Assembly (NCBI RefSeq): GCF_003019035.1
Contig: NZ_CP027447.1
DNA length: 64,000 nucleotides
Strand: one strand, 5' to 3'
Source of the DNA: Escherichia coli
Lineage (GTDB): Bacteria > Pseudomonadota > Gammaproteobacteria > Enterobacterales > Enterobacteriaceae
The notes beneath the pieces were generated by a model. That model saw nothing but the letters and a program-made list of their open reading frames with translations, was not told the DNA's origin and did not search any database. This document shows, piece by piece, positions 4,490 through 15,571 of this stretch. Both the position numbers and the translations under genes were made by a program. Every line of letters begins with the position of its first letter. Position 1 is the first letter of the stretch.

Positions 4490-4596
4490 GATCGTCTCCT
4501 TGCGGTGTGAGGTATAACAAGGGTAGACGTGACTGGCGAAATCTTCGCCAGTCGATAACAGCTTTACGACGGCTATCACGAATTTACGGGCAAGGG

Positions 4597-5892
4597 TTAC
4601 AGCGGATAATGCGCGAAGTACACGGCTTGCTGGTCATTAATTTTCTTCTCTTGCGCAAACCCTTCTTTAACAATTGTCCGTAAATCAGCTCGAGCCGTAT
4701 TATCAGAGACGCCCAGGCTCGCGCTAATTTCAGCAACTGTGTACTCTTTCCCCGGATTGGCGAGCATCACATTCAGGAGCGTTACCTGGCGCGGATTCAG
4801 GCGTTTAAGCACACCAGAGCTAAACAGCACACTATCGAGTTTTGCGCTTCGTTGTGTAATTTCATCGATATGCTGCTGCCAGTTTTGCAGAGCACGTTTA
4901 ATGACACCCGCCTGATATTCAAGGAAATAAGTCAGATCCATACCATCTGATTCAGTGTACTGGTAGCTGGCGGCATATTTGACCGGTGCAGCATGAAGCA
5001 AACGGCTGATGGAAATATATTTAAAGACATCGTAGCCCGATTTCAGCATATACCAGTAAAACAGCGCCCGACTGGTGCGCCCGTTGCCATCCCGAAACGG
5101 ATGTTCATGGGCCAGCATAAAATGCAGAATGCAGGCACGGACCAACGGATGAATATACCCTTCATGGCTGTTTAACCACTGGCAAACTTTTTCCAGCCGT
5201 TCCGGTAACAATGCCGCAGCGGGCGGTTGATGCACTATACTGCCATCATAGTCGGCGATCACAACATCATCTGTTTCACGAAATTCTCCCGGACGATATT
5301 TCGCGTCATTGATTCCACCCATACCAATGGCATGTAACTGGCGAATAAGCGCAGGTGTCAGCGGTTCTGCGAGTAAGTGCGGAATTTCCGCCATCAGCCG
5401 GGCATTTCCCGCAATCATATGCTCGTCTTCAGTGCGTGGCGACCGCCCTGTTTCCAGCATTTTTCTCGCCACCAGCGTTGTAGTATTCGCACCCTCCAGC
5501 TGGGAGCTGGTGATCGGCTCTTCCAGGCGTAACTGGCTTAACTCGGCTCCGGCCCCGCGTAACCGTTCAGTCTGATCTTTCAGCGCCAGCGCGGTAGCAC
5601 GTTTGTCGACAAGCTCGCACGCTTCTGCAATCACCGGGGTAATGTTGAATCCGGCCTGTTCACCCGCTTCATTGCAATAATTAATTCGTTGGATCGCCGC
5701 GTTGCGCGCCAGACGGGTAAGCGTCCACGCCACATCGACGTTTTCTCCTTTTTTGATGCGGTACTGCAACTCATCAAAAGGCAGATAACGTCCTTTTTCA
5801 TCGGTAACCCGGTTAAAGCGCAGGTGGGCCAGGAGTTCCTCACCCGATAAGTGTGATAAAGGAATAAGTCCGGGAGGTGATTTGATAGCCAT
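4597..5892 (-). CDS. Fic/Doc-family protein (putative AMP-transferase) with N-terminal inhibitory-helix motif and C-terminal winged-helix-like domain
   Basis: 431-aa ORF, ATG start. Fic motif [12 protein letters not shown] at residues 264-275 (nt 5068-5103); SSQLEG at residues 129-134 (nt 5491-5508) matches the (S/T)xxxE(G/N) auto-inhibition motif; C-terminal ~70 aa look like a wHTH. Confidence 0.85.
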
Positions 5893-5897
5893 GTGCT

Positions 5898-5978
5898 TAT
5901 CTCAAAAAAGCGCAATATTGAGATAGTGTATAGCAGGAAAGAGAAACTATCTCAAAAAAAGCAAGTTTTGAGATAGTT
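5898..5978. promoter_or_regulatory. Two related palindromes between yiaY stop and the fic start (candidate operator pair and/or yiaY terminator)
   Basis: Palindrome A 5898-5925: TATCTCAA / TTGAGATA arms with 12-nt spacer. Palindrome B 5945-5978: AACTATCTCAAAA / TTTTGAGATAGTT arms with 8-nt spacer. Both share the core CTATCTCAAAAAAGC...TTGAGATAG. Confidence 0.35.
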
Positions 5979-6021
5979 GAAAAAGCGGCTGACAACTCGC
6001 CAGCCGTTGTGGGAATGATGA

Positions 6022-11530: not shown

Positions 11531-14500
11531 ATGAGCGGAAAACCGGCGGCGCGTCAGGGCGACATGACGCAGTATGGCGGTAGCATTGTTCAGGGTTCTG
11601 CCGGGGTGCGTATTGGTGCCCCCACCGGTGTGGCCTGTTCGGTGTGCCCCGGCGGGGTGACGTCCGGCCATCCGGTCAATCCGCTGCTGGGTGCAAAGGT
11701 CCTTCCCGGCGAAACCGACCTTGCCCTGCCCGCCCCGCTGCCGTTCATTCTCTCCCGCACCTACAGCAGTTACCGGACAAAAACGCCCGCGCCGGTGGGG
11801 AGCCTCGGCCCCGGCTGGAAAATGCCTGCGGATATCCGCTTACAGCTGCGCGATAACACTCTGATACTCAGTGATAACGGCGGCAGAAGCCTGTATTTTG
11901 AGCACCTGTTTCCCGGTGAGGACGGTTACAGCCGCAGCGAGTCACTCTGGCTGGTGCGCGGCGGCGTGGCGAAACTGGATGAAGGTCACCGGCTGGCCGC
12001 ACTCTGGCAGGCGCTGCCGGAAGAGCTTCGCCTGAGTCCGCATCGTTATCTGGCGACGAACAGTCCACAGGGGCCGTGGTGGGTACTCGGCTGGTGTGAG
12101 CGGGTGCCGGAGGCGGAGAAGGCCACTTCCGGCGGGACGGAACCGTCCGCTTTTCCTGATACCCTGCCGGGTTACACCGAATATGGCCGGGACAACGGCA
12201 TCCGTCTGTCTGCCGTGTGGCTGACGCACGACCCGGAATACCCGGAGAATTTACCTGCCGCGCCGCTGGTGCGCTATGGCTGGACGCCACGCGGCGAACT
12301 GGCGGTGGTGTATGACCGCAGCAATACACAGGTGCGCAGCTTTACTTACGATGATAAATACCGGGGCCGGATGGTGGCGCACCGCCGCGCGGGCCGGCCG
12401 GAAATCCGTTACCGTTACGACAGCGACGGGCGGGTGACAGAACAGCTAAACCCGGCAGGCTTAAGCTACACGTATCAGTATGAGAAAGACCGCATCACCA
12501 TCACCGACAGCCTGGACCGCCGTGAAGTGCTGCACACGCAGGGCGAAGGCGGGCTGAAGCGGGTGGTGAAAAAGGAACACGCGGACGGCAGCGTCACGCA
12601 GAGTCAGTTTGACGCGGTGGGCAGGCTTAAGGCACAGACGGATGCCGCAGGCCGGACGACTGAGTACAGCCCGGATGTGGTGACGGGACTCATCACGCGC
12701 ATCACCACGCCGGATGGCAGGGCATCGGCGTTTTACTATAACCACCACAACCAGTTAACGTCAGCCACCTGGCCTGACGGGCTGGAAATACGCCGGGAAT
12801 ATGATGAATCCGGCCGTCTGATTCAGGAAACCGCACACAACGGCGATATCACCCGCTACCGTTATGATAATCCACACAGTGACTTCCCCTGCGCAACGGA
12901 CGATGCCACCGGCAGCCGGAAAACCATGACGTGGAGCCGTTACGGTCAGTTGCTGACCGTCACTGACTGTTCCGGTTATGTAACCCGTTATGACCATGAC
13001 CGCTTCGGGCAGATGACGGCGGTGCACCGCGAGGAAGGCCTGAGCCAGTACCGCGCATACGACAGCCGTGGACAGTTAATTGCGGTGAAAGACACGCAGG
13101 GCCATGAAACGCGGTATGAATACAACGCCGCCGGTGACCTGACCGCCGTCATTGCCCCGGACGGCAGCAGAAACGGGACACAGTACGATGCGTGGGGAAA
13201 GGCCGTCCGTACCACGCAGGGCGGGCTGACCCGCAGTATGGAATACGATGCTGCAGGACGGGTCATCCGCCTGACAAACGAAAATGGCAGCCACACCACC
13301 TTCCGTTACGATGTACTCGACCGGCTGATACAGGAAACCGGCTTTGACGGCCGCGCACAGCGTTATCACCACGACCTGACCGGCAAACTTATCCGCAGCG
13401 AGGATGAGGGGCTGGTCACCCACTGGCACTATGACGAAGCAGACCGCCTCACGCAGCGCACCGTGAATGGCGAAACCGCAGAGCGGTGGCAGTATGACGA
13501 ACGCGGCTGGCTGACAGGCATCAGCCATCTCAGCGAAGGGCACCGGGTGACGGTGCATTACAGGTATGATGAGAAAGGCCGCCTGACCGGTGAGCGCCAG
13601 ACGGTGCATCACCCGCAGACGGAAGCACTGCTCTGGCAGCATGAAACCAGACATGCGTACAACGCGCAGGGGCTGGCGAACCGCTGTATACCGGACAGCC
13701 TGCCCGCCGTGGAATGGCTGACTTATGGCAGTGGTTACCTGGCAGGGATGAAGCTGGGTGACTCGCCCCTGGTGGAGTACACCCGCGACCGCCTGCACCG
13801 GGAAACGCTGCGCAGCTTCGGCCGTTATGAACTCACCACCGCTTATACCCCTGCCGGGCAGTTACAGAGCCAGCACCTGAACAGCCTGCAGTATGACCGC
13901 GATTACACCTGGAACGACAACGGCGAACTCATTCGCATCAGCAGCCCGCGCCAGACCCGGAGTTACAGCTACAGCGACTCCGGCAGGCTGACCGGCGTTC
14001 ACACCACCGCAGCGAACCTGGATATCCGCATCCCGTATGCCACGGACCCGGCAGGTAACCGCCTGCCCGACCCGGAGCTGCACCCGGACAGCACCCTCAG
14101 CATGTGGCCGGATAACCGTATCGCCCGTGACGCGCACTATCTTTACCGGTATGACCGTCACGGCAGGCTGACGGAGAAAACCGACCTCATCCCGGAAGGG
14201 GTTATCCGCACGGATGATGAGCGGACTCACCGGTACCATTACGACAGCCGGCACCGGCTGGTGCACTACACGCGGACACAATATGCAGAGCCGCTGGTCG
14301 AAAGTCGCTATCTTTACGACCCGCTGGGCCGCAGGGTGGCAAAACGGGTATGGCGACGTGAACGGGACCTGACGGGCTGGATGTCGCTGTCACGGAAACC
14401 GGAAGTGACCTGGTACGGCTGGGACGGCGACCGGCTGACCACGATACAGAACGACAGAACCCGCATCCAGACGATTTATCAGCCGGGGAGCTTCACGCCA

Positions 14501-15571
14501 CTCATCAGGGTCGAAACCGCCACCGGTGAGCTGGCGAAAACGCAGCGCCGCAGCCTGGCGGATGCGCTTCAGCAGTCCGGCGGCGAAGACGGTGGTGATG
14601 TGGTGTTCCCGCCGGTGCTGGTGCAGATGCTCGACCGGCTGGAAAGTGAAATCCTGGCTGACCGGGTGAGTGAGGAAAGCCGCCGCTGGCTGGCATCGTG
14701 CGACCTGACGGTGGCGCAGATGCAAAACCAGATGGAACCGGTGTACACGCCGGCGCGAAAAATTCACCTGTACCACTGCGACCATCGCGGCCTGCCGCTG
14801 GCGCTTGTCAGCACGGAAGGGGCAACAGCGTGGTACGCAGAATACGATGAATGGGGCAACCTGCTGAATGAAGAGAACCCGCACCAGCTGCAGCAGCTCA
14901 TCCGCCTGCCGGGTCAGCAGTATGATGAGGAGTCCGGCCTGTATTACAACCGCCACCGCTATTATGACCCGCTGCAGGGGCGGTATATCACTCAGGATCC
15001 GATTGGGCTGAAGGGGGGATGGAACCTGTATGGATATCAATTGAATCCGATATCAGACATCGACCCCCTGGGTTTATCTATGTGGGAGGATGCAAAATCG
15101 GGGGCATGTACTAATGGTCTTTGCGGCACACTATCCGCTATGATAGGTCCAGATAAGTTTGATTCTATAGATAGCACCGCATATGACGCCTTAAATAAAA
15201 TAAATAGCCAATCTATTTGCGAAGATAAAGAGTTCGCTGGTTTAATATGTAAGGATAATAGTGGCAGATATTTCTCAACAGCACCTAACCGAGGGGAAAG
15301 AAAAGGATCATATCCATTCAATAGCCCTTGCCCTAATGGTACTGAGAAAGTATCAGCTTATCATACTCATGGTGCAGATAGTCATGGAGAATATTGGGAC
15401 GAAATATTTTCAGGCAAAGATGAGAAAATAGTTAAAAGTAAAGATAACAATATCAAGTCATTTTATTTGGGCACGCCCAGTGGTAATTTTAAAGCAATAG
15501 ATAACCACGGGAAGGAAATAACAAACGGAAAAGGATTACCTAATGTCTGCAGAGTTCATGGTAATATGTAA
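11531..15571 (+). CDS. rhsA: Rhs-family polymorphic toxin (PAAR-like N-terminus, YD-repeat core, variable C-terminal toxin tip)
   Basis: 1346-aa ORF; N-terminal [17 protein letters not shown]...; many YD/RYxYD repeats; core ends at DPxGL (DPLGL, nt 15062-15076) followed by an AT-rich ~164-aa C-terminal domain with several Cys; located between yibF and yibA. Confidence 0.9.

Follow-up and report, generated by a model that had tools for sequence, protein, structure and literature searches.

We found a fic-family gene between aldB and yiaY in a 64,000-nt stretch of Escherichia coli DNA (contig NZ_CP027447.1 of RefSeq assembly GCF_003019035.1; the whole stretch is called the window below). The gene, an intact open reading frame (ORF) with an ATG start at 4597-5892 on the minus strand, is predicted to encode a 431-aa class II, that is self-inhibited, Fic AMP-transferase with a C-terminal winged helix. 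The product is probably a self-contained, self-repressing and self-inhibited SoFic-like Fic enzyme, with a mechanism and role that we infer below. Two of its features are new here and had been missed in an initial annotation of this DNA: a conserved pair of putative operators in the fic promoter, and a conserved, family-restricted N-terminal domain of ~100 aa. Sequence comparison indicates that the gene is ancestral in Escherichia and under strong purifying selection, and that ~70% of E. coli look to have lost it through one deletion allele.

Domain architecture and relatives

The Fic catalytic motif was read directly at residues 264-275 (5068-5103, minus strand), where it follows HxFx(D/E)GNGRxxR within a Fic fold, with H264 as the catalytic histidine; Pfam Fic spans residues 177-281 (E 3.4e-19). 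In an alignment of 35 homologues (40-76% identity), H264, P265, F266, D268-R272 and R275 are invariant. So are I127 and S129-A135, which take in the inhibitory-helix motif SSQLEG at residues 129-134 (5491-5508, minus strand). This motif follows (S/T)xxxE(G/N) and sits on a predicted helix (114-132) N-terminal to the Fic core. A phmmer search of PDB sequences aligned its E133-G134 with the inhibitory-glutamate position of FICD, E234; the inhibitory glutamate is predicted to be E133.

An AlphaFold model built on the same alignment (mean predicted local distance difference test, pLDDT, 89; predicted template modeling score, pTM, 0.84) lays out an N-terminal domain (residues 1-99), the Fic core, a long helix (321-359) and a winged helix-turn-helix (wHTH) at residues 361-427 (4612-4812, minus strand). 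The last has helices at 367-378, 386-393 and 397-409, the third being approximately the recognition helix, and strands at 413-417 and 423-427. Pfam HTH matches in the protein itself are weak (residues 361-414); across the family, HTH_DeoR matches 18 of the 35 members (E<=0.001) and SoFic-like_C matches four (14 at E<=0.1), with HTH_11 and HTH_20 matches also present. The recognition helix carries N-T-A, with N398 at 90% or more and T399 and A400 invariant. A Fic domain followed by a C-terminal winged helix is the SoFic-like architecture of InterPro IPR048770. Judged from these motifs and profiles the architecture is class II and SoFic-like, with the inhibitory helix inside the same polypeptide; the initial annotation had given the ORF, both motifs, the winged helix and this class as we found them. 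A TTG-start ORF of 94 aa (5631-5915, minus strand) lies in another frame over the 5′ end of fic and is most likely spurious.

Residues 96-428 align with positions 30-351 of the 361 in the PADLOC SoFic profile PDLC03963 (E 1.3e-43; 89% of the profile), a match judged by E-value and not by PADLOC's own acceptance thresholds, and PHROG 5978 matches at E 2.8e-53. Automated defense finders would label the gene SoFic. Foldseek returned CbFic2 (8cil), Dde_2494 (4rgl), SoFic (3zcn, 3eqx), a Mycobacterium marinum Fic (7cb8), 7xux (which we take to be CccR) and FICD, with probability 1.0 for CbFic2, SoFic, 7xux and FICD; the phmmer matches in the PDB included FICD, Dde_2494, SoFic and other Fic proteins. 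Naming by NCBIfam was tried and rejected: SoFic (39 of 550 bits), XopAC, Doc and VbhT all matched weakly and below threshold, and for this reason we claim no orthology to a named enzyme. By sequence the protein belongs to a distant, paralogous SoFic-like subfamily and is the orthologue of no studied protein. The suggestion that it represents an undescribed system fails, because characterized relatives of the same architecture exist: SoFic, EcSofic, CccR and CbFic2 have all been studied.

SoFic (Shewanella oneidensis SO_4266, or MloA; PDB 3EQX, 3ZCN) shares the class II helix motif and the C-terminal winged helix (SoFic-like_C), and its fold matches over ~350 columns with TM-scores of 0.66-0.71, normalized to the target. 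It differs in that identity is only 17-18% and in that the E. coli protein has ~95 extra N-terminal residues ahead of the aligned region. The SoFic dimer binds its own promoter in the first 100 bp, and the authors infer autoregulation from this binding; the enzyme both AMPylates and deAMPylates EF-Tu (bioRxiv 10.64898/2026.07.09.737422). Its operator sequence is undefined, whereas a specific double palindrome can be defined for the E. coli gene.

EcSofic comes from E. coli H397 and represents the single-gene anti-phage system SoFic, reportedly described by Millman et al. in 2022. It is detected by the same PADLOC profile and shares the architecture of Fic and C-terminal domains, with toxicity expected unless restrained; homologues in the family of the E. 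coli protein are likewise found on mobile elements. PDB chain 9vjc, which appears to be EcSofic (H264 aligns with its position 194), gives only a weak phmmer match confined to the core (E 4.6e-7). The toxicity and structure of EcSofic have been studied, its protection against T5 is cited in the same work, and it is neutralized by a 47-aa protein encoded downstream, Sofic-AS1 (PMC12249575). No such ORF lies downstream of the fic gene between aldB and yiaY, which also differs in being ancestral in Escherichia and outside a defense island.

CccR of Yersinia pseudotuberculosis (YPK_0951) shares the Fic-HTH domain logic and the autorepression design, and 7xux, presumably CccR, has the fold match given above. 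It is without the N-terminal domain, its catalytic histidine being at 192 rather than 264. CccR represses its own gene in a dimer-dependent manner through promoter palindromes near -35 and -10, and it owes its toxicity to AMPylation of FtsZ (PMC9755527). Its operator is AGATAATCAT-N26-ATGATAATCT, as against two TATCTCAA-N12-TTGAGATA sites 50 bp apart in E. coli, and it is secreted by a type VI secretion system (T6SS), its gene lying beside an effector cluster, a context not found at the E. coli gene. CbFic2 of Coxiella burnetii (PDB 8CIL) gives the best Foldseek E-value (7.4e-12, 21% identity). It joins Fic and DNA-binding domains, and DNA binding stimulates both AMPylation and deAMPylation (PMC10628234); it differs in that the binding is described as DNA-induced and not as operator-specific autoregulation, in that the reported target is eukaryotic histone H3, and again in having no N-terminal domain of this kind. 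FICD (HYPE), a metazoan class II Fic protein, comes closest in sequence to the Fic core (E 3e-12), and the E234 with which E133 aligns is its inhibitory and deAMPylation glutamate. In FICD, tetratricopeptide repeat and transmembrane regions replace the N-terminal domain and the winged helix, and the protein is a regulator of BiP resident in the endoplasmic reticulum.

The N-terminal domain (residues 1-99; 5596-5892, minus strand) was seen only in the Fic family of the 431-aa protein, and residues 1-95 fall outside the PADLOC SoFic alignment. In the homologue alignment it has a D-x-KGRYLxxDE motif and invariant Y36, R45, W56 and R63; modeled alone, it reaches a pLDDT of 93. Its profile matched 264 clusters among 1.84 billion representatives, always at the N-terminus, in proteins of ~430-500 aa or shorter; 44 of the 107 short ones align to their own ends with the 431-aa protein and are clearly fragments. 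An AFDB50 search with the domain returned almost only the Fic family, plus a few short uncharacterized entries, and it matched no solved fold. The domain is a candidate for the missing sensor. Among full-length representatives, 34 of 41 keep the catalytic motif as HPFx[DE]GNGRxxR. Two proteins with the domain, P0235 and P0267, have a degenerate catalytic motif (EKMFVDGNGRIAR; DAPFARGNGRIAR) and have lost the inhibitory glutamate (SAQLSG in P0267) with the rest of the protein kept; members of this kind may be regulator-only pseudoenzymes.

Putative operators in the fic promoter

Two palindromes lie between the yiaY terminator (5986-6006) and the fic start codon. The proximal putative operator, O1 (5898-5925), is TATCTCAA-N12-TTGAGATA; it stops 5 nt short of the start codon and takes in the predicted transcription start, near 5920, and the short leader. 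The distal one, O2 (5945-5978), is AACTATCTCAAAA-N8-TTTTGAGATAGTT; it shares the core of O1, from which it is 50 bp away. A predicted extended -10 element, TGcTATACA on the sense strand (5927-5935, minus strand), has 17 nt upstream of it a predicted -35, TTGAGA (5955-5950), which is the promoter-proximal arm of O2. The promoter assignment is putative, and a scan rule needing T at hexamer position 6 did not list the site. The TATCTCAA-N12-TTGAGATA pattern occurs twice in the window, both times in the fic promoter, against 0.17 occurrences expected.

We examined 80 homologue loci, from enterobacteria, Pseudomonas, Marinomonas, Cellvibrio, Aeromonas, cyanobacteria and others. A generic palindrome test (7/8 arm matches, any sequence) discriminated poorly, with 32% of control windows passing, and a motif-specific test was used instead: xyzTCA-N13-15-TGAz′y′x′, with at least two of the three outer positions complementary, within 170 nt upstream. 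At least one motif was found at 60 of the 80 loci, compared with 188 of 7226 control windows (2.6%), and at least two at 34 loci, compared with two control windows. The spacing of the paired motifs is 49-51 bp in 31 of these 34. The O1-type motif lies at -26 to -36, and in most loci a TGcTAnnnT-like element is found just upstream of it. The arm pairs are ATCTCA/TGAGAT (32), GTCTCA/TGAGAC (12) and ATTTCA/TGAAAT (8), with rarer ACCTCA/TGAGGT (2), AACTCA/TGAGTT (2) and TTTTCA/TGAAAA (1); all six variants are changed symmetrically, in both arms. The fic gene is the only one consistently linked to the palindromes.

Half-site and spacer length are thus conserved and spacer sequence is free, with helical phasing between sites, which as a sequence pattern is the signature of a site for a dimeric protein rather than of a free RNA hairpin. 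The invariant N-T-A of the recognition helix parallels the invariant TCA of the operator core. The residues leading into the helix also go with the arms, CAYNTA with ATTTCA, SENTAR with ACCTCA, and S(D/Y)NTA with ATCTCA or GTCTCA, a correlation that is confounded by phylogeny. The CccR palindromes lie near -35 and -10; those of the E. coli gene overlap the predicted -35 and start site of its own promoter, where the protein would bind. Autorepression by the protein's own winged helix is the best reading of the palindromes, by analogy with CccR.

Distribution, a deletion allele and gene neighborhoods

The segment between aldB and yiaY was found in 1572 of 5426 complete E. coli genomes, always chromosomal and in one copy per genome. 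Most of the non-carriers show an empty site, 433-434 nt across in every case sampled. About 29% of strains have the intact gene, and at the same site ~70% carry a single precise deletion. Where the gene is missing, 164 nt separate aldB and yiaY, in line with the near-adjacency that the initial annotation gave for K-12. The extent it proposed, ~1.5 kb at 4490-6021, is slightly too large: alignment of filled and empty sites puts the missing segment at 1368 bp (4603-5970), with 1 nt of microhomology at the junction. Minor variants of the site are IS200C inside the empty site and an IS1-linked loss.

The segment had been taken for an insertion, a small accessory island, and this we reject. The empty allele keeps the final Leu codon and stop of the ORF (TTACAG, 4597-4602) and the outer 8 nt of the distal arm of O2 (AGATAGTT, 5971-5978), whose partner arm lies within the missing segment. 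In an insertion target this half-arm would have to preexist by chance, at about 4^-8, whereas its presence follows at once from a deletion. The gene is also found in E. albertii, at 95% amino-acid identity, and there too aldB is the next gene downstream; the E. albertii contig stops 90 nt upstream of the gene, and synteny is seen on the aldB side. No aldB/yiaY synteny was found at the other 79 of the 80 loci fetched. Nucleotide identity between E. coli and E. albertii is 91.8% for fic and 92.5% for the flanking aldB. The GC content of fic is native at 50.9%, and the nonsynonymous and synonymous rates (dN, dS) between the two species are 0.024 and 0.33 (dN/dS 0.073). Sampled filled alleles within E. 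coli are 95.4-100% identical to the window. The relics in the empty sites, the E. albertii synteny, a divergence equal to that of aldB, the native GC content and the dN/dS together lead us to take the gene as ancestral at this site in Escherichia.

The description of fic as a single gene holds. No small partner ORF, AS1- or FicA-like, and no conserved small ORF was found between yiaY, fic and aldB; the small ORFs near fic in this region all overlap fic, aldB, yiaY or the operators. The fic stop is 107 nt from the start of aldB on the same strand. No intrinsic-terminator-like site was found between them (4490-4597), so that in carrier strains transcription starting at the fic promoter may continue into aldB. 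A literature search found no paper treating aldB, yiaY and Fic together.

Homologues were found on islands or mobile elements in Klebsiella, Salmonella and Photorhabdus but not in Escherichia, Pseudomonas or Pseudescherichia. A homologue from Klebsiella (48% identity) is carried as cargo, behind a DUF927 primase gene, by a phage-satellite-like element with an integrase, AlpA and Bro/AntA. At loci L082-L087 such elements combine integrase, AlpA or HTH_17, Bro-N or AntA, and DUF927-primase genes with a 453-aa Fic homologue, and are inserted at different chromosomal sites; some also carry tail-fiber and tail-fiber-assembly genes (Gp53-like_C, Caudo_TAP). The Salmonella homologue is at the edge of an integrative and conjugative element (ICE) with AcaB and TraG, and that of Photorhabdus follows parDE and hicAB. 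Those of P. syringae and Pseudescherichia stand alone among core genes. At the P. syringae loci L090-L092 the homologue adjoins, on the opposite strand, an iron-containing alcohol dehydrogenase gene of the family of yiaY, probably by coincidence. In IMG/VR, 37 predicted viral contigs encode relatives. At least six of the contigs (L098, L100, L104, L110, L113 and L114) end with the homologue as their last gene, which could mean prophage-end cargo or a prophage boundary drawn too far out. Among INPHARED phages there was no full-length match; the only hits were SoFic-like cores in Gram-positive phages.

Another system in the window is a hicA (61 aa) and hicB (136 aa) toxin-antitoxin pair at 2063-2675 on the minus strand, between a GH127-like gene (53-1951) and aldB; RefSeq annotates the pair as HicA/HicB. 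This arrangement was found in 447 of the 5426 E. coli genomes. In Photorhabdus the hicAB genes immediately preceding the fic homologue (L095) show 44-49% identity to this pair. Linkage of hicAB to fic was considered and rejected, since they are not co-distributed (447 versus 1572 genomes).

Proposed mechanism and role

In the mechanism that we propose, a dimer would bind each palindrome through its two winged helices, with half-sites 20 bp and sites 50 bp apart. Binding at both O1 and O2 would keep transcription low, for which CccR is an experimental precedent and SoFic a suggested one. At rest, E133 would block productive ATP binding, and the enzyme would be inactive or a deAMPylase, by analogy with FICD and SoFic. 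A cue, possibly acting through the N-terminal domain or a change of oligomeric state, would then switch it to AMPylation. The target would be an essential GTPase-type protein, as EF-Tu is for SoFic and FtsZ for CccR, and growth would stop.

The most likely role, by analogy with EcSofic, is abortive-infection-type phage defense or mobile-element defense; a switch that serves stress physiology alone is almost as probable. Defense is favored because the SoFic profile matches, homologues are cargo of mobile elements and EcSofic reportedly protects against T5, and the physiological switch because of the vertical, core-like behavior of the gene in Escherichia and the absence of a phage phenotype in a SoFIC deletion of strain NILS69.

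Several points weigh against the picture of a self-repressing defense enzyme. In the natural E. coli isolate NILS69, deletion of a SoFIC gene called by PADLOC/DefenseFinder, which may or may not be the aldB-yiaY fic gene, brought no change for 10 phages (PMC12409345). About 70% of E. coli manage without fic, which in Escherichia lies outside defense islands, between core genes, and is vertically inherited; the chromosomal copies in Pseudomonas and Pseudescherichia are also lone ones. The NCBIfam SoFic equivalog NF046030 scores 39.4 bits against a cut-off of 550, and identity to every characterized relative is only 17-23% in the Foldseek alignments. Another factor could in principle bind the palindromes, and O1 could act as an RNA hairpin in the 5′ leader. 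The mechanism and role proposed for the 431-aa protein draw on sequence, structure prediction, comparison and analogy.

The best-surviving alternative, which we regard as possible though not probable, is a housekeeping-type reversible switch. The enzyme would AMPylate and deAMPylate a host protein such as EF-Tu or FtsZ according to stress or growth state, with no phage role, and its winged helix would only hold dosage constant. Vertical inheritance, a dN/dS of 0.07 and native GC content in Escherichia fit such a switch, as do the lone copies among core genes in P. syringae and Pseudescherichia and the NILS69 result, subject to the identity of the gene deleted there. Class II enzymes with the inhibitory glutamate, such as FICD and SoFic, indeed both add and remove AMP. 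However, absence from ~70% of E. coli would be unusual for a core regulator, and the PADLOC SoFic match, the relatives on satellites, an ICE and prophage ends, and the toxicity and reported T5 protection of EcSofic speak against it.

A secreted inter-bacterial effector like CccR, delivered by T6SS, toxic to competitors through AMPylation of FtsZ and serving as a regulator in kin cells, seems very unlikely. The domain logic and autorepression design are those of CccR, the fold match to 7xux (probably CccR) has probability 1.0, and an rhs-type ORF (11531-15571) lies ~5.6 kb away in the window, but yiaY, selB, selA and other core genes intervene between it and fic. No T6SS-related gene (VgrG/PAAR, adaptor or immunity) was found in the window flanks or at the inspected homologous loci, and the N-terminal domain resembles none of the known T6SS delivery domains.

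It is scarcely plausible that the protein is essentially a transcription factor, with the palindromes its sole functional output and the Fic domain vestigial or ligand-binding. The few members without the catalytic histidine and inhibitory glutamate but otherwise whole (P0235, P0267) would suit such a reading, as would conservation of the operator across phyla; against it, the catalytic and inhibitory residues are all invariant in the 431-aa protein and 34 other homologues, most full-length representatives (34/41) keep the catalytic motif, and within the 64-kb window the operator is found nowhere but in the fic promoter. A two-part toxin-antitoxin module with an unrecognized small antitoxin, like Sofic-AS1 or FicT-FicA, is hardly credible, for all that EcSofic is neutralized by a protein encoded downstream: the gap to aldB is 107 nt, the small ORFs are overlapping and unconserved, the deletion allele removes fic alone, and the internal inhibitory helix is the class II arrangement.

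The self-repressing, self-inhibited enzyme may be taken one step further, into a scheme that is speculative and on the whole unlikely. Here the N-terminal domain would be the sensor, and a single polypeptide would be sensor, repressor and effector at once. A phage- or stress-derived cue that binds this domain would free the dimer from both operators and lift the E133 block; the protein would then be made in a burst while a GTPase of translation or division was being AMPylated. The operator code, in which the invariant N-T-A helix reads TCTCAA, would carry over from one phylum to another.

Many genome surveys list Fic-wHTH proteins as SoFic defense genes, and for the question of how such proteins are triggered the N-terminal domain offers a candidate sensor. 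The operator is kept from enterobacteria to cyanobacteria, and its arm variants track changes close to the recognition helix; autoregulation, and a control of AMPylation coupled to DNA, can therefore be put to a direct test. The locus also illustrates that a gene resembling a small island can be an ancestral gene lost from most strains. Its presence and absence in E. coli amount to a natural experiment, in which isogenic comparison and complementation with the native 1.5-kb module would be straightforward.

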